The notes under the pieces were generated by a model, which was not told the DNA's origin, made no database searches, and saw only the letters and a list, made by a program, of their open reading frames with translations. The position numbers were made by a program, and so were the translations under genes. Below are positions 2,547-21,497 of a stretch of DNA of 23,764 nucleotides, one piece after another. Within the stretch, counting starts at the first letter, position 1. Each line of letters opens with the position of its first letter. The stretch lies in contig JBEQLE010000069.1 of the NCBI GenBank assembly GCA_040326155.1, forward strand, positions 1 through 23,764, read 5' to 3'. This stretch comes from Leptospirales bacterium. GTDB lineage: Bacteria; Spirochaetota; Leptospiria; Turneriellales; JAOUFE01.

Positions 2547-3887
2547 TTAATTGCAGGTTATGTTTTCCGTGACGTTCGCGGTTAGAACTCTTGGTAACAA
2601 AGCGACATTGTCCACTGCACAACCTGTTCCGATGCCAGAGTCAGCTTTTCTTTTGAGGTCGTATAATGTGCCGCTGGGGTAGGTAATAGGAAACGTATAA
2701 GTTGCTAAGGGATTCGTCATCATAACGATTACTGCGCCGGCATTAAAGCCGTTAATTTTACGTTCTACAGTTACCCATGTTTCTGTTCCTCCCCAGGTGA
2801 TCGTAACGGTTATTGTAAACAGTGCATTGTTGTTTAAATCGACATTCGCTAAGCCATCTGCGTCGCTATCGTACCCTATGGGAACGCCGGCGTCTCTAAT
2901 AATCTGGTAGTTTGTGCCGCCGCATCCAGCAGTGGATTGCAGTACAAAAACTCCCACAGCATTCTGGCATAGATACATTTCAGTAGTCCCGGCAGTACCG
3001 TCAATATCGATCGTTAACCCGACTCCGTCGCCGGTGTTGCCGGTTATCGCCATATCGACATTAGCATTAAATACTCCATCGTAATCGATATCAATGGAGT
3101 CGATTACACCGTCAAAATCGGAGTCAAGCGGGGTTCCAAACAAGCTGGTTACGGTTGCCACATCGAGAGTATCTTCGTATACACCGCATTTGACATTGGC
3201 AGTAGTTGCATTTGCTGTTGCAATAATACCCACTTCGTTTGACAATAAGCAGTTTTGACCTGTCGGGTAAGAAACAATGGCTACTTCATAGGAGGAATTA
3301 TCGTCGAGGTTGGTGGTAAATACATAATTAGCCGGTCCTGAAGTTAATAGCAGGTTCTCAGCATGAACTCCATTTACTTTTAGGGAAATAATCATATTTG
3401 CGCCTAGAGTAGTAATCGAACCACCCACGGTATAATAATTAATTGCCACACCGGTTAAATTAAAGTCAGCAACTCCATCACCGGTATTGTCATAACCGAA
3501 AGGTACATTATTAATGTCGTATTTAATGATAACGGGTGAACCGCCTCCGTTTATCGCTGTAGAAAAGGTTACATTGCCCAGATTATCTATGTTCATATAG
3601 AAATCGGCCGTTAAATCGGAGTTGATATCGGCCCTTCTTGAAGTGCCTACAGTATCAAGTAGTACTATGTCGGCGACTCCATCGTTATTAATATCGATGG
3701 CGTCAGGAACTCCGTCTAAATCGGTGTCGATACCACTGCCTATGTTGGTTATATTTGACCAGACTGTCTCTTCATCGGCGGTCTCGGTGACTGTTTCGTC
3801 ATATCCGGTAACCACTTGATCGAAATTATTAGTACAACCCATTATGGCAATCGTAGTAATAATAAATGCTCCAACCAGCTTTTTCAT
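2547..3887 (-). CDS. Surface lipoprotein with two repeats of [DxDxDG Ca-binding block + Cys-bridged beta-sandwich]
   Basis: Lipobox MKKLVGAFIITTIAIMG|C. DxDxDG-like loops include DTDLDG, DINNDG, DNTGDG, DSDFDG and DSDADG. Two beta-rich domains end in C...AN.T...V/I.C. Confidence 0.75.
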   Translation of the reverse strand: MKKLVGAFIITTIAIMGCTNNFDQVVTGYDETVTETADEETVWSNITNIGSGIDTDLDGVPDAIDINNDGVADIVLLDTVGTSRRADINSDLTADFYMNIDNLGNVTFSTAINGGGSPVIIKYDINNVPFGYDNTGDGVADFNLTGVAINYYTVGGSITTLGANMIISLKVNGVHAENLLLTSGPANYVFTTNLDDNSSYEVAIVSYPTGQNCLLSNEVGIIATANATTANVKCGVYEDTLDVATVTSLFGTPLDSDFDGVIDSIDIDYDGVFNANVDMAITGNTGDGVGLTIDIDGTAGTTEMYLCQNAVGVFVLQSTAGCGGTNYQIIRDAGVPIGYDSDADGLANVDLNNNALFTITVTITWGGTETWVTVERKINGFNAGAVIVMMTNPLATYTFPITYPSGTLYDLKRKADSGIGTGCAVDNVALLPRVLTANVTENITCN

Positions 3888-4235: not shown

Positions 4236-4263
4236 TTGACAGTTCCGTTGCAATTTTTATTAT
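4236..4263 (+). promoter_or_regulatory. Putative sigma70 promoter of the giant carboxylase
   Basis: TTGACA (4236-4241), 16-nt spacer, TATTAT (4258-4263), 33 nt upstream of ATG 4297. Confidence 0.6.
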
Positions 4264-4296: not shown

Positions 4297-7200
4297 ATGT
4301 TAAAAAAAATTGAAGATAGTCTTGAAAATTTAAAAATAATTAATTCCCGATATGCCGAGATTCGGACAAAAGTGTCAAAACGCACTCATAAATTGCAAAA
4401 GGTTTTGGTGGCAAACCGGGGCGAAATTGCCAAAAGGTTTTTTCTTTCTTTAAGAGAAGAAGGAATTCCGAGTGTTGCGATTGTAACGGATGTTGATTTA
4501 GGCCAGTCCTGGTATGAACAGGCTGATGAAGTGGTCGTTATAGGCGAAGTACGTAATTATACTAATATATCAATTGTTATAGCAGCTGCCTTGCTTGTAA
4601 AAGCAAATGCTATTTATCCTGGTTACGGATTTTTATCTGAAGAAGCTACGTTTGTGGAAGCTATTCGAGATGCCTCCAAAGAGTACAAACATGAAATGAT
4701 GTTCATGGGACCTGACGCTTCTATTATGCACAAGGTCGGCGATAAACTGGCAGCGCGAAAACTTGCAAAAGAGCAAGGCGTTCCGCTATTTGAAGGTTCC
4801 GAAGCTCTGCCGGATGGTTCTGAGGCTCTTATTGCAGCAGATAAAATTGGATACCCTGTCATTGTTAAACTGACTTCCGGCGGTGGCGGAAAAGGGATGA
4901 TGCCCGTTCATTCTGAATCGGGTCTCTATCTGGCTATTGAATACTGCCAGAGAATGGGACGCCAGCTCTATAATAGCGATGTTTTTTATCTGGAAAAATT
5001 CATTGAACGACCTGTACATATGGAGGTTCAAATTTTCAACGGAACCGCAATTGGTATACGTAAATGTGCTGTTCAACGACGTAACCAAAAGGTGGTCGAA
5101 GAGAGTGGGGAGGGTTTTCTCGATTCTCATACTATACTCTCGATGCTGGCGGCGGCTGAGAATATGGCCGATATTTCTGGGTATTCCGCAGGGGCGGGCG
5201 CTGGAACCGTAGAATTTTTATTTGATCCTGATTCTGCAAAATTTGGTTTTTTGGAGATGAATGCCCGGTTGCAGGTGGAACATCCGGTTACCGATCAGTC
5301 TGTTGGTATTGACCTGGCAAAATGGCAAATTCTCTATTTTGACGGTCGCGATAATGAAATTCCATACCAGCTGGCCTTAAAACGGCGATTTGTTGAAAAA
5401 CTGCACTCCATTGAAGCGCGTATTTATGCAGAAGACCCTGAAAACGACTACGCCCCGGCGCCGGGAAAAATTCAAGAGTTAGAACTGCCTACTTTTAATG
5501 GAATTCGTAGCGATTTTGGTTTTAAAAAAGGCGATCTAATTTTGCCGCACTACGACCCCATGATAGGGAAAGTAATTGTAGAAGGGGCAACCCGGGCAGA
5601 GGCCATTACTCGCCTTGAAAGGGCATTAAGTGAACTCTATATAAAGGGTGTGCTTACGAATGTAAATCAGTTGTTAAAAATTGTTCGTCATTCGGAGTTT
5701 AAAACAGGCAATTATACAAACCGCTTGTTACAAGATCACCGTAGCCTGGAGTCCGGTGAACCTGACGAAAAAGAGGGCTTGTTGGCCGCTGTTTTTGGAG
5801 CGTTGGCTGAAAATGCGCGCTATATTAAAGAAGGAACAACACAGGCTTTTATTTCAGGCGATCTTGAAAATAGTATACATGCCCTTCGTCTTAGACGCCT
5901 TCCCATTAGTTATAATGTTAAATTATATAATCAAGACTATGAAATAGAACTTTTACAGACTTCGCTGGCTGTTTATTATGTCTCGGTAAACGGAGAGTAT
6001 CTTGGTGAAGTGGAACAGCTGCCTCGGCTAGAAGGAAATGACGATTATCTTGTAAGGTTCGGGGTTCAATATTACCCTATTCGAATTGATCGAAAACCCT
6101 CTTTTTCTGTATTGCGAATGCAAGATGACGAGGGTAAAATTCATTATTACAAACTGAATATTGTGGCCCAGGGGGCTGGAGATAAAGTTGACCCAGAAGG
6201 AATGATGCGCGCGCCGTTTCAATCTACCTTTGTCGCTTTTGCTAAAGATGAGAATTTAAAACGAGATCGTTTAAGTGAAGGTAGTATAGTTAAAAAGGGT
6301 GACCCCATATTGATTATTGCTGCGATGAAAATGGAGACGACTTTGTTTGCTCCTATTTCTGGCAAAGTCAGCTACCTTGTGGAAGATGGAGACCTTTCGA
6401 AACTTGAAGTGGGAAAAACTCCCGACGGGCTGGTGATTGGTAAAAGTTTAGTTGAAGGTGAAATTCTATATACAATAGAACCGGAATTGGACAGCAAAGC
6501 GGAAGAAAAAGAAGCGGCAAAACCGGTGGCTAGAAAAAGCCCTGGTAACCATCCGCTGGACTTGCTTTATGAAGATTCAATTTTTGAGCGTGTAAATAAA
6601 AAACCTACGGAAGTTATTCCTGTGGTTTTAATGCTGGCCGCGTCTCATTTTCAAGGGTTTTTACCTGATGATAAAATTATTTCACGTGTATCGGAAGTTC
6701 TAGGTAAAATTGATCCTAAATCTTTTGCTAAGTGTGATTCTGAAATTCTTCAAACCAAAATTGGCGAAATTATTGCCTTTTATACAAATGTAAAAAAGAT
6801 TTTCTCGCCGACACTCGATACAAACCTTTCGTTTTTCGGAGAATTGAATCGATTTGTTTCCCAATGGGGGGACGACACTGCTCCGCCATCGTATGCATTT
6901 CGGATGACACTGAATCAGCTGTTTAAAGCGTATGGCATACTCGATTGGAACATTAAAAGTAGCTCCGATAGCAGTACCGTTAAACTTGCTTTCTTTAATA
7001 TTTTAAGAGCGCATGGAGCCTGCACCGGATTTCCAGATGTAATACGAAGTTTGGTTGAAATTATTTCCTATGTAAAAAACCCTTCGAAAAGAATTGTCAG
7101 TTTGCTGAAAGGGCTGGTATTACAAGAGCAGTCTGAACGCGACGACTCTTTAGCCGTTTATACCGCTCGATTAATTCGTGATTTAGACGGACCTCAAATT

Positions 7201-10200
7201 TCAAGGGATATTATACCCATTATCTCTCGAAAGTACATTCCGGAATTTCGCCAGCATATGACCGAAATTTATCACACATTTCCGGGCCATAAACCGGATG
7301 AGTTGGAAGCAAAAATTTCCGCTTCGTTAAAAACCCCTGAAAGCGATTTAATTGGTGATGGTCTTCCGGAGTGGTTCCACCTTGAACTTTCGGAAAGAAC
7401 CGAAAAATTGTCTAAATCGATAAAACTGAAGCGGCTGTATTCACCTTTTAAAGAAGTCGTAATATATCTGGCTGAAAACAAAAAGAATAAGAAAAAAAGA
7501 TATTTTGCGCTATCTTATGTGGCTAAAGTTGACCTGGAAAAAGATGAGCGTGGTAAAGTCATCAGCAGCGAAAGTACGGAAAGAGCCTGTATTCATACAA
7601 CTCAGGTCGTGAGAGCTTATCACCAGATGAAACCTCTAGATGAAAACTGGGTGGAAGTATTTGCCTGTTCGAACTCTATTCCCATGGATATAGGCAGCCT
7701 CGATACCGGTGTTTTAAGTTATCACGGGTTGGCAAGAACCGGACTTACTATACTCAGGTTTTTTACCGATGTAGCTATTACACGTACGACGGTTCATATA
7801 GACGCAGAAAATCCATATGATAAGCAGGTTCGTAGAAAAAGTATTCTCTTAAATCGCCATAAAGGTCAATTGAAACTCGACTTTTTAATCGATCGTGATG
7901 AGTCGAACCCATATTTTGACGGAGAGCCGAACCCGAGAGAACAAAGGTTGTTTGACCGTGAGAAATGGCCTATCGATATCTGGGTGAAGGAATCTTTTGA
8001 CCCTGGAACATCGACTGAAATTACAATTGCTTCTATTGATGAACGCCAATGGATAAACCCCAAAACTGATAAAGAAGAGATTAAGCCTGTCGGTGGTAAA
8101 ATTTTCATAGGACATCTGAATAAAACTCCGGCGCTTTATTATTTAAAAGATTCTCGAATTGCCGGTGGAGCAAGTGGAAATCTCGAAGGGTTGAAATATG
8201 CCGCAGCTACTTATATTGCTTATCGAAAGAATATTCCATTATATGTATGGAACGACGGCGCCGGTGCCAATATTAAAGAGGGTGTGGTTTCATTGAATCG
8301 TGCCGCGCAGGGGTTCATGATGAATGCGCTACTTGGCGGGCGCGCCTCTGAAGAGGTGTTTAACCGGTATACGGAAAATTCTGCAGACCCTGAACTTAGT
8401 AAACTGTTTCAAGAAGTAGATCGACTTGAATCTGTTCATGCGATTGAGTCTGGAACGGGGTATTTTGTTACGGGAGTAGGTATCGGTTCATCGACAGGAC
8501 TTGATGTATATGGTTCGAGTCAGATGGCGGTTCAGCTAATGGTTGACTCCAGAGAGTCGTACCGGGTTCTAACCGGTTCCAATGTTATTAAATCGGTAAC
8601 CGGAGAAGATTTAACCAACTATGAAATTGGCGGCGCCAGGGTTATGGGAAAATGGACCGGGACGGTTGACCTGATTGCGCAGAATAAACTTCATCTATTA
8701 AATCAGATTCGTTCTATTCAGAAGGTTTTTGTAGACCAACGTATGCTTAGCAGTATACAACGGGTGGAAGAATCTACAAAAGATAGTAATTCGGTTGATA
8801 CACCCGATGTATTGAATTATCAAATTATAAGGCGAAACTCCGACGAAGGGTACTTTTTGCCAATGAAAGAAGAGTTTTTCGGGTCGGGTTCTACCCTTGG
8901 TGGGTTTGTAAGGCTTGGCGGCAGAACAACACTTGTTATGGGGCCTCGAACAAACTTTGGAATTCGATCTTTTGCATCGATTACCAAGGCAAAAGAGTTA
9001 TTGGTGATTGCTCATAAAACCGGGGCAAACCAGATACTTTTATATGGAGAAAACTGGTATCATGAAACTGTACTGGAAGATGATCTGGCAATACGGGCAA
9101 GAACAGATTTCTTGAGGCTATTAAATAAAAGGCAAGGAATACGGGTTCATATTATTACTCATCGCGATGGCTTGCATAGAGTTACCATGAATAGTTCGGC
9201 GGATGCACTAATTTATGTAAATAAAGATGAAATCAGCACTAGAGATTACGAGGTAATACGCAAAACGGCGACCTTTATTGTCGATACCATAGAAGAAGCG
9301 TTCGATATATCACACAAAATCTTCAACCTGTTGGACCCTGTTGGGAAAGTAAAAGTCGAGAAGCCAAATGCGGCGCCGACTCTTCCTGAAGATACGTCGC
9401 TACCTTTCGATATGGTCGCAAATATTATTGAAAGAACAGTAGATAAAGATAGCTACATTGAATTTTATAGTAAAATGAATAATCCTACGCAGGGACCTTC
9501 GCTTATTACAGGTTTGGCAAGACTGAACGGCGAGACAGTCGGTATTATTGCCGATCAACCAGTTATTATGGGCGGGGCGCCTGATGCTCCCGGTACGGAA
9601 AAGTTCCGATTTTTTACCGAATTTCTGGAAAAAAACAGCATTCCACTTCTAATGCTCTCGAATGCGCCTGGTTTTGTACCGGGAACGAAGCAAGAGAGGT
9701 TGCGAATTCAACAAATTGGTGCTGAATCGTTGGATGTGAATGTTCTGAGTCAGATACCCGTGGTATCGGTTGTACTCAATCAGAATTTTGGCGGACGACA
9801 GATTCATTCTTTCAGTAAAGATCTTCGACCTGGTATTGTCTATATAGCTATGAAAAAAGCGGTTATAGCGGTGATGGGCGCGAGTGCCTCTTTCGACCTG
9901 TTCATGGGACCAAAATACCAGGAGCTTTTAAGCGGGGGAAAAACGAAAGAAGCGAACGAATTGAAAAAGAAATATGTTGAAGAATACAACAACAAAGCGG
10001 CTGCCTCCAACGATGCATATAAAACCGGCGTTCTCGATTGGGTTATGGACGACTTGAAAGAGTTAAGAGACCATCTAATGAAGGGGTTGGTAGAAGCAAA
10101 AAGAAGAGTCAATGAGATATTTAAATCTCGTTTTGCCGGCATGAAAGAGGAAGAAAAAGACGAAGTTGCAGTTCGTAGAATTCTTGAGTTGAAGAATGTA

Positions 10201-10302
10201 GCCTATGAGATTACCGATAAAGGCGAGATTAAACTTCAAGAGAGTGGAAAAATCGTATCAAAGAAATTGATTCTCGATTCACTGAATAGTATCGATATTT
10301 AA
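4297..10302 (+). CDS. Single-chain multidomain biotin-dependent acyl-CoA (probably acetyl-CoA) carboxylase, 2001 aa
   Basis: BC motifs: KVLVANRGEIA, GGGGKGM, RKCAVQRRNQKVVEE, FLEMNARLQVEHPVT, YDPMIGKVIV. BCCP: AMKM (biotinyl-Lys678). A central region of about 500 aa follows. CT motifs: NDGAGANIKEG, LTGSNVIKSVTGE, ITGLARLNGETVGIIADQP, APGFVPGTKQE, NFGG. Acetyl-CoA specificity is inferred from the adjacent FAS II operon. Confidence 0.93.
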   Translation: MLKKIEDSLENLKIINSRYAEIRTKVSKRTHKLQKVLVANRGEIAKRFFLSLREEGIPSVAIVTDVDLGQSWYEQADEVVVIGEVRNYTNISIVIAAALLVKANAIYPGYGFLSEEATFVEAIRDASKEYKHEMMFMGPDASIMHKVGDKLAARKLAKEQGVPLFEGSEALPDGSEALIAADKIGYPVIVKLTSGGGGKGMMPVHSESGLYLAIEYCQRMGRQLYNSDVFYLEKFIERPVHMEVQIFNGTAIGIRKCAVQRRNQKVVEESGEGFLDSHTILSMLAAAENMADISGYSAGAGAGTVEFLFDPDSAKFGFLEMNARLQVEHPVTDQSVGIDLAKWQILYFDGRDNEIPYQLALKRRFVEKLHSIEARIYAEDPENDYAPAPGKIQELELPTFNGIRSDFGFKKGDLILPHYDPMIGKVIVEGATRAEAITRLERALSELYIKGVLTNVNQLLKIVRHSEFKTGNYTNRLLQDHRSLESGEPDEKEGLLAAVFGALAENARYIKEGTTQAFISGDLENSIHALRLRRLPISYNVKLYNQDYEIELLQTSLAVYYVSVNGEYLGEVEQLPRLEGNDDYLVRFGVQYYPIRIDRKPSFSVLRMQDDEGKIHYYKLNIVAQGAGDKVDPEGMMRAPFQSTFVAFAKDENLKRDRLSEGSIVKKGDPILIIAAMKMETTLFAPISGKVSYLVEDGDLSKLEVGKTPDGLVIGKSLVEGEILYTIEPELDSKAEEKEAAKPVARKSPGNHPLDLLYEDSIFERVNKKPTEVIPVVLMLAASHFQGFLPDDKIISRVSEVLGKIDPKSFAKCDSEILQTKIGEIIAFYTNVKKIFSPTLDTNLSFFGELNRFVSQWGDDTAPPSYAFRMTLNQLFKAYGILDWNIKSSSDSSTVKLAFFNILRAHGACTGFPDVIRSLVEIISYVKNPSKRIVSLLKGLVLQEQSERDDSLAVYTARLIRDLDGPQISRDIIPIISRKYIPEFRQHMTEIYHTFPGHKPDELEAKISASLKTPESDLIGDGLPEWFHLELSERTEKLSKSIKLKRLYSPFKEVVIYLAENKKNKKKRYFALSYVAKVDLEKDERGKVISSESTERACIHTTQVVRAYHQMKPLDENWVEVFACSNSIPMDIGSLDTGVLSYHGLARTGLTILRFFTDVAITRTTVHIDAENPYDKQVRRKSILLNRHKGQLKLDFLIDRDESNPYFDGEPNPREQRLFDREKWPIDIWVKESFDPGTSTEITIASIDERQWINPKTDKEEIKPVGGKIFIGHLNKTPALYYLKDSRIAGGASGNLEGLKYAAATYIAYRKNIPLYVWNDGAGANIKEGVVSLNRAAQGFMMNALLGGRASEEVFNRYTENSADPELSKLFQEVDRLESVHAIESGTGYFVTGVGIGSSTGLDVYGSSQMAVQLMVDSRESYRVLTGSNVIKSVTGEDLTNYEIGGARVMGKWTGTVDLIAQNKLHLLNQIRSIQKVFVDQRMLSSIQRVEESTKDSNSVDTPDVLNYQIIRRNSDEGYFLPMKEEFFGSGSTLGGFVRLGGRTTLVMGPRTNFGIRSFASITKAKELLVIAHKTGANQILLYGENWYHETVLEDDLAIRARTDFLRLLNKRQGIRVHIITHRDGLHRVTMNSSADALIYVNKDEISTRDYEVIRKTATFIVDTIEEAFDISHKIFNLLDPVGKVKVEKPNAAPTLPEDTSLPFDMVANIIERTVDKDSYIEFYSKMNNPTQGPSLITGLARLNGETVGIIADQPVIMGGAPDAPGTEKFRFFTEFLEKNSIPLLMLSNAPGFVPGTKQERLRIQQIGAESLDVNVLSQIPVVSVVLNQNFGGRQIHSFSKDLRPGIVYIAMKKAVIAVMGASASFDLFMGPKYQELLSGGKTKEANELKKKYVEEYNNKAAASNDAYKTGVLDWVMDDLKELRDHLMKGLVEAKRRVNEIFKSRFAGMKEEEKDEVAVRRILELKNVAYEITDKGEIKLQESGKIVSKKLILDSLNSIDI

Positions 10303-10952
10303 TTCTCTGTATTGCAAACGGCGACAAAACAGAACCGTCCGTGGTGACTTAAAGAAAGAGTCAAAGCAGGTTGCGGGCGGTTTTCGCAATGAATAACAGG
10401 TGCGAATCGAGGTGATGCGGAAGTTTTTACGATCGTTACATCCGATAAGCCGATTTCATTTTCAAGCAGCCAGAGAGCGTAGCAGTGACACAAACGGGAC
10501 TCTTCTGAATAACTATTTACTTTTTTACGGTAGGCTGAAAGTTCCTTCATGTCTTGAATTGTGTCAAATTTCGAAATCCACTGTTTATACTTCATTTGTT
10601 TTGATGAGTTAAGACAGACGGAGGCTACATATTCAGATGTTTCGAAGTTCTTAACCGGGTAAGATGCATTTTTGTATGTAACAATTTCTCGCTCCAGAAA
10701 TACTTCAAACTTTATGGGGGAGAACAAGGTGTCGGAATTAAACCGGGCAAGAGCTTTAAAAGTGGACTCTTTAGCGGCCCACATGGCCCAGGCTGTTTTT
10801 TCTTTTTGGGGACTGTTTTGGATATGACGAATTTCGTTTGCGGTAAAGACCCGCTCTATAAATTTGCTGTTTTGCAATACGTCGAGTGAATCAGAATCGA
10901 ATAAATCGACAATATCATTCCCGATTGCCAGTTTTTTCGCGGAAATATTCAT
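10299..10952 (-). CDS. 4'-phosphopantetheinyl transferase (ACPS superfamily)
   Basis: IGNDIVD, FIERVFTANE, WAAKESTFKA and the C-terminal LSLSHHG; last gene of the ACP operon. Confidence 0.92.
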   Translation of the reverse strand: MNISAKKLAIGNDIVDLFDSDSLDVLQNSKFIERVFTANEIRHIQNSPQKEKTAWAMWAAKESTFKALARFNSDTLFSPIKFEVFLEREIVTYKNASYPVKNFETSEYVASVCLNSSKQMKYKQWISKFDTIQDMKELSAYRKKVNSYSEESRLCHCYALWLLENEIGLSDVTIVKTSASPRFAPVIHCENRPQPALTLSLSHHGRFCFVAVCNTEN

Positions 10953-11712
10953 CCTCCATTTTCTTGAGGGTTTCCATAATCTGTAGACTCAAGTCGCGAT
11001 GAGCGCGTAAACCGGTATGTTTGGTTTTAGGGTAGAACTCCTGAAATTTAACGGTAAACGTTTCGCCTTTAATAGGAAGTTCCGAGTAGCCCTCTTGGGC
11101 ATCGCCCCGCATGTACACACACACAGCTTTCAGGTTCGGCACTTCACTTATAAGTTTTCCGACACCGTATCGAATATTGTCCATATCGATTCGAGCCGTG
11201 CGACTTCTACCGCCTTCAGGAAAATAGGTAAAAACATGCCCTTTTTTCATCAGGTATATGGTTTTGTGCAACACCATGTCGTGGTGTTTTTTTGAACCGG
11301 CCCTGTCGACAGGTATACATTTACCCAGATAGGTAATTAACCTACGTGTTATTGTGTTTTTAAAGTTTTCTACAGCTGGAATATTCCATGTCAATTTTTT
11401 ATAATGGGCTGCGTAAAAGGGCATTTTGGCGGCGGCCCAGATAAAGATATTTGAATCCATCATCGTTAAATGATTGGTGCATAGCAAAACAGGATCTTTT
11501 GTCGTGACCAGTTTCTTGTACGCAGCTTTTACTTCTTTAGAATTGCGTAATTTATATTTCAATATAAATCGGAAGATGAAATTAATTACATAGCCAAGCG
11601 GTACTGTAAAAAGCCATCCTAGAAAAATTTGTACAGCTAGACTTCTGTACTCTTTTTTCAACTCTTTTTTAGAGAAAGAGGTTAGTGACGAGTTATCGGT
11701 TTCTTTTTTCAT
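10915..11712 (-). CDS. Lysophospholipid acyltransferase (PlsC family)
   Basis: Catalytic HxxxxD (NHLTMMD), IPVDR and FPEGGRS; N-terminal hydrophobic segment. Confidence 0.9.
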   Translation of the reverse strand: MKKETDNSSLTSFSKKELKKEYRSLAVQIFLGWLFTVPLGYVINFIFRFILKYKLRNSKEVKAAYKKLVTTKDPVLLCTNHLTMMDSNIFIWAAAKMPFYAAHYKKLTWNIPAVENFKNTITRRLITYLGKCIPVDRAGSKKHHDMVLHKTIYLMKKGHVFTYFPEGGRSRTARIDMDNIRYGVGKLISEVPNLKAVCVYMRGDAQEGYSELPIKGETFTVKFQEFYPKTKHTGLRAHRDLSLQIMETLKKMEDEYFREKTGNRE

Positions 11713-11721
11713 CGATTAGAT

Positions 11722-11765
11722 TATAAAAGATGAAACAGTTTTTGAGTTCTCTTTCATCTTTTATA
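11722..11765 (-). terminator. Perfect 14-bp inverted repeat between ACP and acyltransferase genes (mRNA stem-loop or partial terminator)
   Basis: TATAAAAGATGAAA (11722-11735) and TTTCATCTTTTATA (11752-11765), 16-nt loop, 14 nt after the ACP stop. The function is inferred. Confidence 0.55.
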
Positions 11766-11779
11766 TCAATGTTTAAGTA

Positions 11780-12025
11780 TTAGATTTTCGCTGTAATGAG
11801 CTCAATTGCAGCTCCAACAGATTCGACTTTATCCGCTTCGTCATCAGCGATTTCTATATCAAACTCGTCTTCCATTGCAAGAATGATATCGACCAAACGG
11901 GACGAATTAACTTGCAGATCGGTTACGATGTTAGTTTCTTTCTTGATTTCCTTTAAGGCGTCCTGGTTCCGTACATAAGGCTCCAGGATTTTCACTACTT
12001 TGTCAAAAATTTCTTGTTCGTTCAT
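11780..12025 (-). CDS. acpP: Acyl carrier protein with atypical NSS attachment motif
   Basis: 81-aa acidic protein DLQVNSSRLVDIILAMEDEFDIEIADDEADKVESV; strong RBS GAGGAGG before ATG 12025. Confidence 0.92.
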   Translation of the reverse strand: MNEQEIFDKVVKILEPYVRNQDALKEIKKETNIVTDLQVNSSRLVDIILAMEDEFDIEIADDEADKVESVGAAIELITAKI

Positions 12026-12060
12026 GTTTTCCTCCTCTGGTAACAATTATTCGGCAAGTC

Positions 12061-13341
12061 TTAGTCTTGCCACTTACGATATATTATACATCCGTTTACG
12101 TCGCCGAAACCGAAACTGGCTTTGGCAACAATTTTTAAATCGACATCTTTTGTTTCTTGTACAACACTATCTGCGAAGGGTTGAATATCTTCGTGAAGAT
12201 CTTCACAGTTTAATGATTTATGTACAAAACCTTTGTACAGCTGTATAATCGATGCGACAGATTCAATAGAACCGGCTGCGCCCAGGCTATGACCGATCAT
12301 GGACTTTGTGGAGTTGATGAGGGGAAGCTCACCCGGTCCTCGTCCAAGGCCTTTAGACCAGTTCATGACCTCTTTCGGGTCAGCCATCGTTGCTGTCAGG
12401 TGACCGTTAATGTAATCGACTTCTTCAGGTTTTGTATCAGCCATTTTAAGCGCATCTTGAATGCATCTTTGTACAGAAGTAGGGTTGGGGGCCGTCATGG
12501 ACCCGCCCATTCTCTGGCCACCGCAGTTAATACTTCCGCCTGTAATTTCGGCGTAAATACGGGCTCCTCTGGCTTTTGCAGACTCCAGAGTTTCAAGGTA
12601 TAAGACACCTCCGCCTGAACCGGGTATAAAACCACCGGATGAGGCACTCATAGGTCGAGAGGCTTTTTCTGGATTATCGTTACTGCTCGAACTGAGAACT
12701 TTCATTGCGTCGAACCCGCCCCAACAATATTCAGAACTACCTTCTACACCACCGGCTATCATTTTTTCAGCGTAGCCGTGTTTAATGCGATAATATGCAT
12801 CTATAATTGCTTCTGTTCCTGTATTACAAGCACTGCTGTTTGAGGAAAGCTGGTTACCAATGGCAAGTAAACCACCTACTTTAGCAGAGACGGAACTTGC
12901 CATAGTTTGTTCTACAGCTGTTGAACCCATGCGACGAACTTTACCAGCGTCTACACGCGGAACAACGAGATTTCCAATCGTGTCCATTCCACCTAAACCG
13001 GCACCAATAATTGCTCCGGTGTCCCAGTATACGGTATCATCATCAAGCTCAGGTATTTTCAGGCCTGCGTCTTTCCAGGCGTCCATACTGGCGATTCCTG
13101 CATATATCATTGCTTCGTTCATTGCTAAAAGCGATTCACTATCAAAGTAGTTGCCAAGTTTCTCTTCTAAATTTTGTGGGACTCCACCTACATTGCAAGA
13201 AAATTTCAGCTCTGCCAGTTTTTCAATAAATCGAATACCACTGACTCCATTACGAAGTGAATTTTCAAATTCGTCAAGGCCGTGGCCGTTCGATGTAATG
13301 ACGCCCATGCCGGTAACAACAACTCTTCTTATATCAGACAT
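12061..13341 (-). CDS. Beta-ketoacyl-ACP synthase (FabB/FabF family), variant motifs
   Basis: RRVVVTGMG; Cys-His-His triad in SSAC, INGHLTAT and TKSMIGHSLGAAG; C-terminal SFGFGDVNG. Confidence 0.95.
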   Translation of the reverse strand: MSDIRRVVVTGMGVITSNGHGLDEFENSLRNGVSGIRFIEKLAELKFSCNVGGVPQNLEEKLGNYFDSESLLAMNEAMIYAGIASMDAWKDAGLKIPELDDDTVYWDTGAIIGAGLGGMDTIGNLVVPRVDAGKVRRMGSTAVEQTMASSVSAKVGGLLAIGNQLSSNSSACNTGTEAIIDAYYRIKHGYAEKMIAGGVEGSSEYCWGGFDAMKVLSSSSNDNPEKASRPMSASSGGFIPGSGGGVLYLETLESAKARGARIYAEITGGSINCGGQRMGGSMTAPNPTSVQRCIQDALKMADTKPEEVDYINGHLTATMADPKEVMNWSKGLGRGPGELPLINSTKSMIGHSLGAAGSIESVASIIQLYKGFVHKSLNCEDLHEDIQPFADSVVQETKDVDLKIVAKASFGFGDVNGCIIYRKWQD

Positions 13342-13801
13342 CTTGTTTCACTCCAACTCCAGATAATGTACCTCTAGCAACGGTTTCACCATTCGCCAAT
13401 GTCATCTCGACTTTAGCTTTGATCTTTTTTCGTCGGTAAAATACTTTTTCACTTTTAACTATGACTGTGTCACCGGGTAAAACCGGCCGTTGAAATTCAA
13501 CATCGCTTTCTGCGAAAAGTGTAATAATGTTTTCATTACCATGCTCTATTGTGTTCAGGTAAATTCCCAGAGCTACAAGGCCTATCTGAGCCATAGTTTC
13601 AATAAGAATTACACCAGGTGTAATTGGGTTGCCCGGAAAATGACCTTCATAAAAGAATTCATCCGGTTTAAAAGTATATTTACCTGTTACTCCAGAATCG
13701 GTGAGTTCCACGATTTCGTCAACAAATCGAAAAGGATGTTGCTGTGGAATGGCTGATAAGACAATCTTTTTGATGTCTTCCATGGATGCTGTTTTATCCA
13801 T
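13334..13801 (-). CDS. fabZ: 3-hydroxyacyl-ACP dehydratase FabZ
   Basis: PQQHPFRFVD and GHFPGNPITPGVILIETMAQ (His/Glu dyad); 8-nt overlaps with both neighbours. Confidence 0.92.
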   Translation of the reverse strand: MDKTASMEDIKKIVLSAIPQQHPFRFVDEIVELTDSGVTGKYTFKPDEFFYEGHFPGNPITPGVILIETMAQIGLVALGIYLNTIEHGNENIITLFAESDVEFQRPVLPGDTVIVKSEKVFYRRKKIKAKVEMTLANGETVARGTLSGVGVKQDV

Positions 13802-14519
13802 ACATACCCCCGTTTACATGTAAGATCGAACCGGTTATATAGGAGCCTGACGTAGCTAAAAAGCGAACTACTTCGCCAATCTCTTCGGGAGTACCCATTC
13901 GTCCTAATGGAATTCTCTCTAAAATGGATTGTTGCAAATCGTCTGGGATTTTTTCCGTCATGTCTGTTTTAATAAACCCCGGGGCTATGGCATTAACCAG
14001 TATGTTATATTGCGATAATTCGACAGCCGCAACTTTAGTCAAGCTGTCAATGGCTGCCTTTGTCATTCCGTAAATGGATTGGGTGGGATTAGCCACCGAG
14101 CCTATTACGCTGCTCATGTTTATTATTCTTCCTGCTTTTCTTCGTATCATAAACCTGGAAAAACGTTTAATTATATACCATGTTGCTCGCATGTTTACAT
14201 CGACTGTTTTTTGAAATTCATCGAGTGTTGCTTTAAAAATTGGATTATCCATTGCGACGCCTGCATTGTTTACCAAGACGTCCAATTGACCATTGTGATC
14301 ATTTTTTATAGTATCGTAAATTTGATCGATACCTTCTGTGGTAGAAATATCCCCTTGCAGGATGAATGAATTTTCAATCGAGGAAGCTACTTCGGCAGCT
14401 TTCGATTCGCTACTATTGTAATGAATACCGACACGGAACCCAGCTTCGCCTAAAGCACGGCAGCATGCGGCTCCAATTCCTGTTCCGCCTCCGGTTACCA
14501 GGGCAAGCTTATTTTCCAT
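13794..14519 (-). CDS. fabG: 3-oxoacyl-ACP reductase FabG
   Basis: TGGGTGIG, NNAG, SSV, YGMTK (YxxxK), APGFIKTDMT, IPLGRMGTPEE, VNGGM. Confidence 0.92.
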   Translation of the reverse strand: MENKLALVTGGGTGIGAACCRALGEAGFRVGIHYNSSESKAAEVASSIENSFILQGDISTTEGIDQIYDTIKNDHNGQLDVLVNNAGVAMDNPIFKATLDEFQKTVDVNMRATWYIIKRFSRFMIRRKAGRIINMSSVIGSVANPTQSIYGMTKAAIDSLTKVAAVELSQYNILVNAIAPGFIKTDMTEKIPDDLQQSILERIPLGRMGTPEEIGEVVRFLATSGSYITGSILHVNGGMYG

Positions 14520-14585
14520 AATAGTTCCTTATAATATTTATCAATTGACGCTGCAAGAATTTCTTAATATCGAAATTTAAAAGAT

Positions 14586-14613
14586 ATGATAGAAACTCAA
14601 GACTTGCCGTCAA
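14586..14613 (-). promoter_or_regulatory. Putative internal sigma70 promoter upstream of fabG
   Basis: Minus strand TTGACG, 16-nt spacer, TATCAT, in the 111-nt fabA-fabG gap, the largest gap in the operon. Confidence 0.5.
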
Positions 14614-14630
14614 ACATTAAACACCCTTTT

Positions 14631-15236
14631 TCAAGGGGTTTGGTCTATAATTCCACCTATCGAATTCTTACTTTTGTTTGGAAAGTCGGGATAAGTAAGA
14701 CCTTTAAACAGACCGGCTTTAGCGTCTCGGACCGTATAAATATGCTCGTCATCTACAAAGACTTTTCCTGTTCCAATAGCCAGAGCTACTCCTTGTTGTT
14801 GCATGTTGCTAAAACGGCGTATATCAATTTCATATCGAACCAGTTTATTGTAGGGACGAATTTGACCCATAAATTCGACTTCTTTGCAGCCAAGGGCTCG
14901 TCCGGCTCCCGATGCTCCCATTAAAGAGCAATATAGTCCAAGTAATTGCCAAATTGCGTCTACTCCAAGGCAACCAGGCAGTACAGGATCGTTTCGAAAG
15001 TGTATTTGAAAATACCAGTCGTCAACACGAACGTCCATTTCAGCGATAATTTTACCTTTGGAACCGTTTCGGGTGATCTCGACAACGCGATCGACCATTA
15101 AAAACGGGGGTGCAGGTACCTGGGGAAACTCGTCAGGAGGATCGTCTATTAGATTCCCATTCGCGTGTCCGATTAAGTCTGCTTTAGTCAGAGATGTTTT
15201 TTTTAAGAACTCATCGTATTTGATCATTGTGTCCAC
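14631..15236 (-). CDS. fabA: 3-hydroxydecanoyl-ACP dehydratase/isomerase FabA
   Basis: PAPPFLMVDR, WYFQIHFRNDPVLPGCLGVDAIWQLLG (FabA-type His/Asp dyad) and GRALGCKEVEFMGQ. Start is GTG 15236 or ATG 15227. Confidence 0.92.
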   Translation of the reverse strand: MDTMIKYDEFLKKTSLTKADLIGHANGNLIDDPPDEFPQVPAPPFLMVDRVVEITRNGSKGKIIAEMDVRVDDWYFQIHFRNDPVLPGCLGVDAIWQLLGLYCSLMGASGAGRALGCKEVEFMGQIRPYNKLVRYEIDIRRFSNMQQQGVALAIGTGKVFVDDEHIYTVRDAKAGLFKGLTYPDFPNKSKNSIGGIIDQTP

Positions 15237-15244
15237 TTTACCTT

Positions 15245-16177
15245 TTATCCGGAGATGTGTTCTCCGCCGTCTACCCGTATAATTGTTCCGTTAATCCATT
15301 TGGACTCGTCCATCGCCATTAATTTAATAACGTTTCCGACATCTTTGGGCTCGGTAAGTCGGCCAAGTGGATTTCTCAATCGCGCATTTGCGCTAATTTG
15401 TTTGTTACCAGGTATATGGCGAAGGGCCGGAGTATCAGTTACCCCTGCCTGAATAATATTGGAACGTATGCCGTATGGTCCCATTTCTGAGGCCATGCTT
15501 CGAGACAAGGCTTCCATAGCGACCTTGGCGGCGGCCACAGCTGCATAACCTTTCCAGGCAACTTCATTGCCTTCGCTTGTGAGGCCAAACATACGGGCGT
15601 CATCTGCAAACATTTTTCTCTTAAATATATCTTTGGCCCAGGTGTAGTAGCTGGTTCCCATGGAGAAAATAGTATTTTGCAGGTCTTCATCATCGACAAG
15701 CAAGTCGTTATTGTAAATGGCGGGGTCTGCTACAGTGTGAAAAGAGTCGTTTCCTTCCTGGAAAAGTTCATTAATAGCCTGGTTAATTTTTTCAGACTCG
15801 TAGCCTGTTTTTTCAGCCAATAGTTGAGCGGCAGTTTTTCCCGGTTCTTTTAATGGAGCCAACAGTTTTAAATTTCCGAAGGCAATGGAGTGTAACAATA
15901 CGCGAACTTTGCCTTCACCCATTTTAGAGGTAAGTTCGTTGAGAACTTCGGTGCGGCCTTCTTCAGAGAGCGCATCGATATTAAATGTAATCAGTTCAAT
16001 TTTGTTTTTGCGAATTTCATCGAATTCAGCATTGATTCTTTCCATCGAGCCACGGCGGTCGCGGTGGGCGATGCATATGTTCATTCCAGCCTGGCTGAGA
16101 GCCTTGGCTGTGGCAAGTCCAAACCCGGAACTTCCTCCGAGAATAACTGCCCAATAATTTTTTCCTTGAAAACTCAT
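15245..16177 (-). CDS. Enoyl-ACP reductase-type SDR (FabI/FabL-like)
   Basis: ILGGSSGFG, LHSIA, Y-x6-K (YAAVAAAK) as in enoyl reductases, GVTDTPALRHIPG, NPLGRLT, VDGG; located in a FAS operon. Confidence 0.8.
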   Translation of the reverse strand: MSFQGKNYWAVILGGSSGFGLATAKALSQAGMNICIAHRDRRGSMERINAEFDEIRKNKIELITFNIDALSEEGRTEVLNELTSKMGEGKVRVLLHSIAFGNLKLLAPLKEPGKTAAQLLAEKTGYESEKINQAINELFQEGNDSFHTVADPAIYNNDLLVDDEDLQNTIFSMGTSYYTWAKDIFKRKMFADDARMFGLTSEGNEVAWKGYAAVAAAKVAMEALSRSMASEMGPYGIRSNIIQAGVTDTPALRHIPGNKQISANARLRNPLGRLTEPKDVGNVIKLMAMDESKWINGTIIRVDGGEHISG

Positions 16178-16204
16178 ATTGTTCCTCCGTATTTCATTGT
16201 GCTT

Positions 16205-17131
16205 TTATGGTTCGAAGGCTTTTTTTGCAGACCTTTCGTTTATAATAGCAGGGACTTTTACATCTATTGTGGCAAAAAATTTAGTTAGTATTTTATTTGG
16301 TCCGATTTCATAGATATCCGTTCCGGTATCTTTCAAAACACGCATATTTTCCATCCAGCGAACTGAACCGGAGATTTGACTGACAAGGTTATCGATTAAA
16401 CCGGCAGAATCGTGAAAATTTCCTGTAAAATTAGATAATACTTTCGATGCGTTGTCTAAATTGAATTTCGGAGCGAAACTTTCTAAAAAAGCTTTAAATT
16501 CGGGTTCAATTTCTTTCATAAGAGAGCTATGGAAGGGGGCGCTTACGCTGAGCGGTACAATTCGAATACCCTCAATGGCACTATCAAGTTTTTCTGTAGC
16601 CGCATCTACGTTTTCTTTTTTACCGCTAATTACAATTTGCCCTGTGGAGTTATAGTTGGCCACTTCGGCTCCGGCGTCTTTGGTAATTTGTTCAAAGTCT
16701 GTAGATTCAATGTTTTCAATAAGCAGGGCAGCCATGGTTCCGACACCTTCGGGAATGGCGGACTGCATAAGGGCTCCCCGACGACGGACGATTTTAACGG
16801 CGTCTTCAAAGGGGATTACCGAAGCGGCGACAAGCGCTGCATATTCTCCGAGGCTGTGTCCTGCGAAAAAAGAGGGGGAAAACCCATACTCTTTTTCTAA
16901 AACACGATAAATGGCAATTTCAGTAGTTAAGATAGCAGGTTGGGTAAATTCGGTTAAATTTACTTTTTCATTTTCTGTAAAACATAGTTCGCTCAGGTTT
17001 TCACCTGTAGCTTCAGAAGCAGAATCAAAAATGTTTTTTGCAATTTCGTGGTTTTCGTAAAAATCTTGCGCCATTCCGGGGCGCTGAGCGCCTTGTCCCG
17101 GGAAAACAGCAGCTGTCTTATTGTTTGACAT
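16205..17131 (-). CDS. fabD: Malonyl-CoA:ACP transacylase FabD
   Basis: FPGQGAQ, TQPAI, GHSLGEY, RGALMQ, ANYNS and SAPFHS; ATG 17131 with GGGAG RBS. Confidence 0.96.
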   Translation of the reverse strand: MSNNKTAAVFPGQGAQRPGMAQDFYENHEIAKNIFDSASEATGENLSELCFTENEKVNLTEFTQPAILTTEIAIYRVLEKEYGFSPSFFAGHSLGEYAALVAASVIPFEDAVKIVRRRGALMQSAIPEGVGTMAALLIENIESTDFEQITKDAGAEVANYNSTGQIVISGKKENVDAATEKLDSAIEGIRIVPLSVSAPFHSSLMKEIEPEFKAFLESFAPKFNLDNASKVLSNFTGNFHDSAGLIDNLVSQISGSVRWMENMRVLKDTGTDIYEIGPNKILTKFFATIDVKVPAIINERSAKKAFEP

Positions 17132-17537: not shown

Positions 17538-17718
17538 AGTTTTACTCCAATTTGTTATTATTATTTGCTCGCAAAAACCGGATATTCATGGTTATTGAGC
17601 AAATGAAATGGCATTTTATGGTATTAAAACAGGACTACAAGGTTTTATACGAAAAACCGTCGGGGGTAGGCCGAGACCGTGGCTTGGCCGAGGGGGCAGG
17701 CTTGCACCCTTCAAAAAA

Positions 17719-18120
17719 GACGATAAAACACGTTTTGAAACCTTTTTGTTGTGCGCAGACAACAGCGTAGTATCCGTAGAAATAAACTGCCACTTCATGG
17801 GCGGCGGAGAAGCCGGGCAAATACTAGCCAGCTGCCGAGCCCTCGACCACCGCAAAAAAGTAGAAACCGCCATAGGAAGAAGAACCGACAACTACAGAGA
17901 AATACTAGACGAAAGCCCCGACGGCTTCTTATTAATGACCCCGAAAGGCAAAATAATAGAAACCAACGACGCTTATGCAAAGCTAGTGGGCTACACAAAA
18001 GATGAAATTTTGCAAATGAACTATTACCAGTTGGTGATTGGTAAAAACGGCGAAGCCAACCAAAACGGAATACTAGAAAACTCGCTATTCAACAATTACC
18101 ATAAAACTAAAGCGGGTGAT
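17719..18120 (+). repeat. Copy 1 of a 402-bp direct repeat (about 89% identical to 22327-22728)
   Basis: Manual codon-by-codon alignment of 134 codons. Confidence 0.95.
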
Positions 18121-18232
18121 TATGGAAAAAATATTAGCGGGAGAACAGAATATAACCGCCGAAACGATATTTAAGATATGTAAGAAATTAGATGTGAAGC
18201 CGGGGGAATTGTTTGATATCTTCTTTGACTAA
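17719..18232 (+). pseudogene. Mosaic pseudogene: PAS-protein paralog fragment with an internal deletion, fused to the C-terminal half of an XRE HTH
   Basis: 17719-18120 aligns without gaps to 22327-22728 (44 differences in 402 nt by my count). The sequence then jumps to match about 22848-22876, and then reads GEQNITAETIFKICKKLDVKPGELFDIFFD* to 18232. Confidence 0.85.
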
Positions 18233-20707: not shown

Positions 20708-21106
20708 TTATGTAATTGGCTTCGCTACTTTTTTCTTCGCTTTTACTTTATCTTTTCGGCTGGTTTGTTCGTCCCAGAGAGTTTCGGCAACCGTTTTTAA
20801 CAACGATTTATACTTATTATTTAATTCCCTGATTTTCAATACGACTTCGACCTCGTCCGGGTTCACAACAAAAATCGTGCCGTTGTATTGTTCACCCATG
20901 CCGGTTTCGAGCCAGACAGAATTTACGCCATACCTCACTTCGAGTAGTTTAACGAACGTCACCGATACCGTATTTATCTTGTTTTTCAGAATACCCGATA
21001 AAGATGGTGGTGTTATGCCAATATTTTCGGCAAACTTCCTTTGGCTTAATTTCGATTCTCTTATAACCTGTTTCAATCTCATCCTGATTTCATCATTCAA
21101 CTCCAT
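20708..21106 (-). CDS. XRE-family (cI-like) HTH transcriptional regulator
   Basis: RLKQVIRESKLSQRKFAENIGITPPSLSGIL...GVNSVWLETGMGE; GGGGGAG RBS. Confidence 0.9.
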   Translation of the reverse strand: MELNDEIRMRLKQVIRESKLSQRKFAENIGITPPSLSGILKNKINTVSVTFVKLLEVRYGVNSVWLETGMGEQYNGTIFVVNPDEVEVVLKIRELNNKYKSLLKTVAETLWDEQTSRKDKVKAKKKVAKPIT

Positions 21107-21137
21107 GTTCTTCTCCCCCCACGTTTGTTTTTATTTA

Positions 21138-21497
21138 TCAATTGCCTTTATTCTGCTCCAGAGCAAATGCTTTACACAGTAATTTAAATAGTTCCTGATT
21201 ATTGTCATCTAAAGCATCATATAGTAAGAATAAATCCTTAATAAGTTCCGAATCGATTTTTATAACTTCTTTATAACGCTCGCCTTTACCTGTTGCCAAC
21301 CAATGTGTATTTATCCCTCGGCAAAGCTCCAGAGCCAGCAACGTTTTTTTCGACAAAGATTTAATTCGTCCTTTAAGAATATCCGACAAAGAAGATGGCA
21401 ATATTCCTATAGAATCTGCAAATTCCATTTTTTTTACGTCGCTTTCTTCAATTAAAAATTCAAGACGGCCTATAACCCCACTGTCAATATGAACCAC
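21138..21497 (-). CDS. XRE-family HTH regulator, paralog of 20708-21106
   Basis: RLEFLIEESDVKKMEFADSIGILPSSLSDILKG...GINTHWLATGKGE; GTG start uncertain. Confidence 0.87.
   Translation of the reverse strand: MVHIDSGVIGRLEFLIEESDVKKMEFADSIGILPSSLSDILKGRIKSLSKKTLLALELCRGINTHWLATGKGERYKEVIKIDSELIKDLFLLYDALDDNNQELFKLLCKAFALEQNKGN

Follow-up and report, generated by a model that had tools for sequence, protein, structure and literature searches.

On the synthase side, the described systems closest to the locus reported here are the type II fatty acid synthase (FAS) of Escherichia coli, a dissociated system, and FabB of Pseudomonas putida, a ketosynthase (KS) shown to prime synthesis on its own by decarboxylating malonyl-acyl carrier protein (malonyl-ACP) (PMC10869286); a separate family of malonyl-ACP decarboxylases, Mad, is defined in PMC8666670. 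On the malonyl-CoA side, they are the single-chain acetyl-CoA carboxylases (ACC) of eukaryotes, the multidomain ACC SACE_4237 of Saccharopolyspora erythraea, whose carboxyltransferase (CT) groups with those of eukaryotes (PMC6491548, the published description through which it is compared here), and the two-subunit XCC enzymes. A survey that scored ACC as absent in three spirochaete genomes also cites the proposal that eukaryotic ACC is a fusion of XCC alpha and beta subunits around a central linker (PMC3199775), and growth on long-chain fatty acids has been described in PMC3746428, PMC11442865, and PMC12769562. Here we analyze a locus of a Leptospirales bacterium (assembly GCA_040326155.1) that combines a giant single-chain carboxylase with a nine-gene fab operon. 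The stretch analyzed, hereafter the window, is the whole 23,764-nt contig JBEQLE010000069.1 (C137) of a 4.26-Mb assembly that is 94.66% complete.

A Compact, Probably Sole Fatty Acid Synthase Locus

Judging from its genes and those of its relatives, we consider it probable that this locus encodes the only de novo FAS of the organism, in which a one-piece carboxylase and an operon built around an ACP with an Asn-Ser-Ser (NSS) motif would together make saturated and unsaturated chains, primed without FabH. All ten genes are present and uninterrupted according to open reading frame (ORF) calls, family scans and a motif check (Table 1). An earlier note on this DNA had placed them in one 12.8-kb locus; every gene that it named was found intact, at the limits given there and with catalytic motifs present. 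The ten genes do lie together, but they form two convergent transcription units rather than one operon: the nine fab genes run on the minus strand from 17131 down to 10299, tail-to-tail with the plus-strand gene of the 2001-aa carboxylase, and the two stop codons overlap by 4 nt. Besides the motifs given in Table 1 for FabZ, FabG, and PlsC, intact catalytic residues include the biotin site of the carboxylase (MKM 677), the KS triad (C172/H314/H351), GHSLG and PFH of FabD, the His/Asp dyad of FabA, and Yx6K of the enoyl reductase (ENR). The KS scores 307.5 of the 493.75 bits required for FabF and 269.9 of the 630 bits required for FabB, and its PDB matches are a mixture of FabB and FabF. Family scans of the window proteins gave no match to the fabH, plsX, or accABCD families, which bears out the claim that the locus is devoid of them. 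Promoter-like sequences were not in excess in the region (26, vs. 29.8 +/- 6.4 in shuffled sequences), nor did the terminator count exceed that of the shuffles.

Table 1. Features of the carboxylase and fab operon locus (positions in the window).
Feature	Position	Strand	Basis or remark
Sigma-70-like promoter consensus, 11/12	4236..4263	+	Upstream of carboxylase; candidate only
Single-chain acyl-CoA carboxylase, 2001 aa	4297..10302	+	Family scans, motifs, model, profile comparison
4'-Phosphopantetheinyl transferase (PPTase), 217 aa	10299..10952	-	PF01648
PlsC-family acyltransferase, 265 aa	10915..11712	-	HX4D and FPEG motifs
ACP, 81 aa from ATG with ribosome-binding site	11780..12025	-	NSSRLVD replaces DSLD
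3-Ketoacyl-ACP synthase (KAS) I/II-type KS, Cys-His-His	12061..13341	-	Under FabF and FabB cut-offs
FabZ-type dehydratase	13334..13801	-	Family scans, H/E motif
FabG-type ketoreductase	13794..14519	-	Family scans, YxxxK motif
FabA-type dehydratase/isomerase	14631..15236	-	NF003509 203.8 bits, cut-off 124; TIGR01749 under cut-off
Short-chain dehydrogenase/reductase (SDR) ENR	15245..16177	-	Best family FabL, 110 vs. 328-bit cut-off (below)
FabD malonyl-CoA:ACP transacylase, ATG at 17131	16205..17131	-	TIGR00128 above cut-off

When the ten window proteins were searched against their own genome by tblastn, FabZ/FabA and the SDR enzymes alone had paralogs, and there was no second carboxylase, KS, FabD, PlsC, or PPTase. 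Family searches recovered a single elongating KS, that of the operon, and a single carboxyltransferase, and found neither AccA nor Mad in this 94.66%-complete genome; contig C157 encodes an oxaloacetate-decarboxylase-like protein with a biotin motif (judged by eye from sequence and neighbors). Since the assembly yielded no further carboxyltransferase, elongating KS, or FabD, nor another complete FAS, the locus is likely the sole de novo synthase. An ACP of the usual DSL type, which the earlier note had proposed to look for, does exist in the order fabZ-fabG-acpP-rnc, with no KS; this ancestral ACP, together with AcpS, FabZ, and FabG, has been kept, but the assembly shows neither a KS nor a FabD to go with it. 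The locus is, however, less self-contained than had been claimed, as plsX (alone at its own site), acpS, birA, bioA/B/D/F, and three other PlsC homologs lie outside the window.

Co-occurrence in Leptospirae Genomes

We scanned 170 Leptospirae genomes, each at least 85% complete, many being relatives and thus not independent of one another. The KS was detected in 31, the carboxylase in 63, and both in 27, while a type I FAS was detected in 35. The carboxylase thus accompanies the KS in 27/31 genomes and the type I FAS in 35/35; one of these two synthases occurs in 60 of the 63 genomes with the carboxylase, and 103/170 have no KS, carboxylase, or type I FAS. The predicted co-occurrence of carboxylase and operon beyond this genome therefore holds, and so does independence from a canonical fabH or accABCD encoded elsewhere, neither of which was found in the genome of the window, where the best match to the FabH model reached 78.6 bits against a cut-off of 292. 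Among the 31 KS genomes, FabH exceeded its cut-off in one, which is 7% contaminated, and 11 had no match to the FabH model, two of these being 100% complete; full-length AccA was absent from all 31, every match to the AccA model being weak and partial. Of ten module-less genomes of the same order that were checked, nine show only weak, partial KS matches.

In loci titled Leptospira or Leptonemataceae/Leptospiraceae, the gene for the type I FAS (~3300 aa), in most cases with an AcpS-like gene after it, lies directly upstream of the carboxylase gene (L096, L101, L102, L104, L112, L116, L118, L125, L130, L132-L134). A search of the open literature returned no paper on a type I FAS of Leptospira.

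The Single-Chain Carboxylase

The carboxylase is the newer and most novel element of the system. It consists of a biotin carboxylase (BC) domain (aa 33-479), a biotin carrier region containing the MKM 677 site, an ACC-like central region (about 725-1240), and a CT region made up of an N lobe, an additional, degenerate C lobe (about 1495-1685), and an intact C lobe. Residues about 1495-1685 resemble a decayed second CT C lobe (hhalign 90%, E 1.4e-6, 83 columns), the three-lobe reading resting on this single profile comparison. The best matches of the BC part are the alpha subunit of methylcrotonyl-CoA carboxylase (MCC) and biotin carboxylases, and the CT profile matches the beta chains of propionyl-CoA carboxylase (PCC) at E 1e-57 to 1e-40 and also, strongly, transcarboxylase 12S, with eukaryotic ACC CT at E>=0.14.

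In sequence, the central 516 aa gave no match to ACC_central in any of 11 members at E<=1 and none to PDB sequences at E<=10, ACC_central appearing as an atlas lead only (score 0.77). A structural model of this region, built from an 11-sequence alignment, has pLDDT 80.2 and pTM 0.71. All 22 Foldseek matches listed at E<=0.001 are eukaryotic ACC, as are the top 17 VIA rows (Z 9.3-12.4; next 7.7), and the best superposition (Z 12.4, rmsd 3.4, 173 residues) is onto the C-terminal alpha/beta part of a fungal central domain; the whole region superposes at rmsd about 11. The middle of the carboxylase is thus predicted to fold like the central domain of yeast and human ACC, firmly for one alpha/beta domain and loosely for the region as a whole. 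PDB 9kkm, a Shewanella carboxyltransferase holoenzyme for which we found no paper, is a weak row in the Foldseek listing (E 0.08).

As for the substrate, an Ile at position 422 of PccB favors acetyl-CoA, and the D422I exchange broadens PccB to acetyl-CoA (PMC7835884). The position aligned to residue 422 of Streptomyces coelicolor PccB is Ile in 117/120 homologs of the carboxylase; because of this residue and the neighboring genes, the giant enzyme likely carboxylates acetyl-CoA.

Among sequences of the lengths searched, 208 homologs of the carboxylase were found at E<=0.001. The median length in 120 homologs is 1950 aa, and a profile of the central region gave 60 representatives at 50% clustering, of which the few named distant ones are Deltaproteobacteria or merely "bacterium." Two distant relatives, P0282 and P0295, have a biotin-ligase domain fused at the C-terminus of the same chain. 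Eighty genome loci encode a relative of the CT region, and their titles are mostly Spirochaetota (including Leptospirales, Leptospiraceae, and Turneriella-type), the exceptions being one Syntrophaceae, one Roseiarcus, and a few with other or no names.

The Carrier Protein and the Proposed Cycle

At its attachment motif the operon ACP reads NSSRL where DSL is usual, and does not carry the Asp-Ser-Leu signature. Across all fetched loci (a redundant set), we counted 23 NSSRL, 6 NSARL, 2 NSANL, 1 NSTRI, 1 NSSRM, and 1 DSIDA. Within the NS motif, the first Ser is the same throughout and the residue after it varies, which points to the first Ser as the putative phosphopantetheine attachment site. 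AcpS and the other usual partners would probably be hampered where the acidic residues of helix II are lost. Given the second ACP/PPTase pair in the genome, consisting of the DSL-type ACP and AcpS, it is plausible that the two carriers are insulated from each other. This is the part of the earlier insulation proposal that survives; a locus insulated from a housekeeping FAS is not what we see, as there is no other complete FAS and the locus itself appears to be housekeeping.

The activities, primer route, and product, which we infer from the gene content, motifs, assembly absences, co-occurrence, and predicted fold observed directly, would be as follows. The one-piece carboxylase would supply malonyl-CoA, the operon PPTase would arm the first Ser of NSSRL, and FabD would load malonyl onto the NSS ACP. 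The single KS may then decarboxylate malonyl-ACP to acetyl-ACP and go on to elongate it, as P. putida FabB does, with FabG, FabZ, and the FabL-like reductase completing the cycle and FabA diverting cis-unsaturated chains. Chains would leave through the operon acyltransferase and probably also through the PlsX encoded elsewhere.

Decarboxylation of malonyl-ACP by the KS is the simplest route of priming because FabH, Mad, and the starter transacylase SAT were not found in the genome, and the locus likely primes in this way without FabH. Other primers were tried and rejected. Mad had no match in the genome, and the KAS III type found inside some related operons has no close copy there. A stand-alone SAT (PF16073) occurs in 27/31 module genomes, but also in 162/170 class genomes, and is absent from all four genomes of the family of the window. 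This SAT protein, ~390 aa long and near-universal in the class, is encoded at L157-L164, L167, L066, L067, L072, L082, L085, L098, L117, and L119, and adjoins the carboxylase gene in eight loci.

Gene Order and Distribution

The FabD-ENR-...-KS order is kept in 11/11 loci from the same order of bacteria. The full nine genes are present in the three other genomes of the family, and the other same-order loci lack FabA, and some also FabG, FabZ, ACP, PlsC, or PPTase, in the stretch fetched; the complete nine-gene arrangement was found in five of seven further class genomes fetched. In genomes G008 and G022, the operon has two tandem KS copies (L040:8868-11495 and L041:8448-11069). Carboxylase and operon lie on different contigs in all three same-family genomes (G001-G003), are adjacent in G008, G022, and G080, and are separated by biotin genes in G005; the tail-to-tail layout of the window recurs in metagenome loci L138 and L143.

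Among the 80 carboxylase loci, the neighborhood holds the NSS module in nine, a type I FAS in 12, a polyketide synthase (PKS)- or pfa-like synthase in 15, and another KS gene in 17; within 10 kb of the CT region, any ketosynthase-type synthase is present in 51/80 and birA in 24/80, counts in which some loci are short and four neighbors served as their own references. In Spirochaetota metagenome-assembled genomes, the carboxylase gene also lies directly downstream of pfa-like multi-ACP synthases or highly reducing PKSs (L097, L103, L106, L109, L113, and L131).

The operon family reaches well beyond the class, as KS homologs at 62-67% identity are labeled Calditrichota, Bacteroidota, and Oligoflexia, with Gemmatimonadota added from the atlas. 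A KAS III sits inside the operon in five of 20 metagenome loci of the module, and the module, though widespread, is therefore FabH-less in some lineages only. Three Flavobacteria-like loci (L152-L154) adjoin a type III PKS. We found no published description of the operon, the NSS ACP motif, or the carboxylase family in a search of the open literature.

The large genes of the locus have a native GC content at third codon positions (GC3) and codon scores at the 34th-94th percentile of the genome, those of the PPTase, PlsC, and the short ACP being lower. In G001 and G003, the carboxylase is accompanied by homologs of the genes upstream of it in the window, and PAS genes come after the operon in the window and after the carboxylase in G003. 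Family scans detected no mobile-element gene among the window proteins, and among 72,556 plasmid records none matched the KS at 1e-100 or covered 80% of the carboxylase. In a quick KS tree, which has a long outgroup branch and is missing three intended outgroup rows, the sequences of the family form one starred clade of seven rows. These data fit a long-resident system subject to reshuffling and loss, an ancient transfer of the system being possible.

Elsewhere in the window, the proteins encoded at 1272-2015 and 2547-3887, the homologs of which adjoin the carboxylase in G001 and G003, have no Pfam or NCBIfam match, and one of them contains repeated DxDxDG-like motifs. Beyond the operon, the PAS ORF at 17608-18174 resembles a shortened copy of that at 22090-23625, the two sharing a 300-nt repeat (91% identity, 4.6 kb apart); they are separated by an ankyrin-repeat gene and a pair of small ORFs on the minus strand (20708-21497).

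Alternative Explanations

Several observations weigh against the locus being a sole, FabH-free synthase fed with malonyl-CoA by its own carboxylase. The assembly falls about 5% short of completeness, and the related genomes in the scan are not independent. Four KS genomes (89-94% complete) have no carboxylase at E<=1e-100, and 12/31 have a near-full-length KAS III-like ORF. The CT region being nearest to PCC beta chains, the carboxylase may possibly use propionyl-CoA, and the three further PlsC homologs of the genome score better than the operon acyltransferase. A divergent KAS III on contig C33, which scores 85 bits against a FabH cut-off of 292, retains Cys-His-Asn and could prime; its neighbors are three desaturase-like ORFs (by eye) and an SDR (L001, G000:C33:57002-63868). 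To judge from its type III PKS neighbors, the module can also serve specialized lipids.

The last of these observations opens a different reading, in which an unusual chain would pass through the operon acyltransferase to a dedicated acceptor, bulk fatty acids being scavenged via PlsX and the DSL-type ACP. An ACP, a PPTase, and an acyltransferase of its own, next to an AcpP/AcpS/PlsX/PlsC set that has been retained, would suit such a role, as would the type III PKS coupling in Flavobacteria-like loci and the use of long-chain fatty acids as a carbon source by Turneriella parva and Leptospira (PMC3746428, PMC11442865); moreover, nine of the ten module-less same-order genomes have no real KS, so the lineage can live without synthesis. 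We nevertheless regard this reading as unlikely, given that no gene for tailoring, a PKS, or export was seen within the operon or next to it, either in the window or in the 11 same-order loci, that the enzymes amount to an ordinary, fully reducing cycle with FabA added, that the same carboxylase serves a type I FAS in 35 genomes, and that biotin genes cluster with the operon or carboxylase in several relatives. Less probable again is a main synthase that is not truly FabH-independent, its primer coming from elsewhere in the genome, either through the C33 enzyme or as short acyl-CoAs that beta-oxidation delivers. The intact triad of the C33 protein, its counterparts in two of the three same-family genomes, and the in-operon KAS III of five metagenome loci speak for it, but the protein falls far below the FabH cut-off, bears no relation to the KAS III type encoded inside operons (best E 6e-5), and was not found in G001, and 11 of the 31 module genomes, two of them 100% complete, have no FabH-model match. 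We give least credence, finally, to a recently acquired cassette, "portable" in the words of the earlier note. Presence is patchy (2/14 in one family and 2/112 in another), KS homologs at 62-67% identity are labeled Calditrichota, Bacteroidota, and Oligoflexia, and carboxylase and module are adjacent in nine of the 80 loci; against this stand the native GC3 and codon scores of the large genes, the single starred KS clade, the carboxylase flanks shared with G001 and G003, the separate contigs in all three same-family genomes, and the lack of a mobile-element gene in the window or of a close plasmid match.

Implications

A broader proposal, which we offer tentatively and hold to be possible though somewhat doubtful, is that the carboxylase represents an undescribed third lineage of single-chain ACC, with XCC alpha and PCC-beta-like halves around a eukaryote-type central domain, an arrangement put forward earlier as the forerunner of eukaryotic ACC, and with a three-lobed CT, and that in Leptospirae it would act as a plug-in source of malonyl-CoA that gave a fatty-acid-scavenging lineage de novo synthesis through interchangeable synthases, either the orthogonal NSS-ACP type II system without FabH or Mad, or a type I FAS. 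The counts above suggest that de novo fatty acid synthesis is encoded in 60/170 genomes of Leptospirae, the members of which have been described as living on long-chain fatty acids, in a phylum once scored as without ACC. The locus also offers a naturally minimal bacterial FAS of ten genes, with one KS, a one-gene carboxylase, and a candidate orthogonal carrier; it may be of use in engineering malonyl-CoA supply, and it bears on the origin of the central domain of eukaryotic ACC.

Comparison with Known Systems

We expect ordinary chemistry of this real and conserved system, but its parts are an undescribed variant. With the dissociated type II FAS of E. coli and its FabA/FabB branch (PMC10869286, PMC8666670), it shares FabD, a Cys-His-His KS, FabG, FabZ, and FabA, and likewise an SDR enoyl reductase, an ACP, a PPTase, and a PlsC-type enzyme, with catalytic motifs present. 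Unlike the E. coli system, it has an NSSRL carrier, its own PPTase, a single KS scoring below the FabB and FabF cut-offs, and a reductase that is FabL-like rather than FabI, and it has no FabH, Mad, or accABCD.

The giant carboxylase resembles SACE_4237 (PMC6491548) and eukaryotic ACC in being a ~200 kDa chain with the order BC, biotin carrier, central region, and CT, and in the predicted fold match of its central region to yeast and human ACC, and the role of the enzyme is likely the same. It differs from them in having no ACC_central Pfam match (11 members), a PCC-beta-like CT, and an extra, degenerate CT lobe. The affinities of its BC (MCC-alpha-like) and CT (PCC-beta-like) are those of the two-subunit XCC enzymes (PCC, MCC, and actinomycete acyl-CoA carboxylases; PMC3199775), although it fuses both halves around a central domain of ~500 aa. 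The single-chain long-chain acyl-CoA carboxylase of PDB 4rcn is unlike it, being 1093 aa long and ranking 41st for the CT profile (E 9e-12). For initiation, the nearest parallel is P. putida FabB (PMC10869286), in that a Cys-His-His KS is proposed to prime by decarboxylating malonyl-ACP; in P. putida, FabB backs up FabH1, whereas here no canonical FabH was found and the KS, with its predicted activity, belongs to a separate subfamily.

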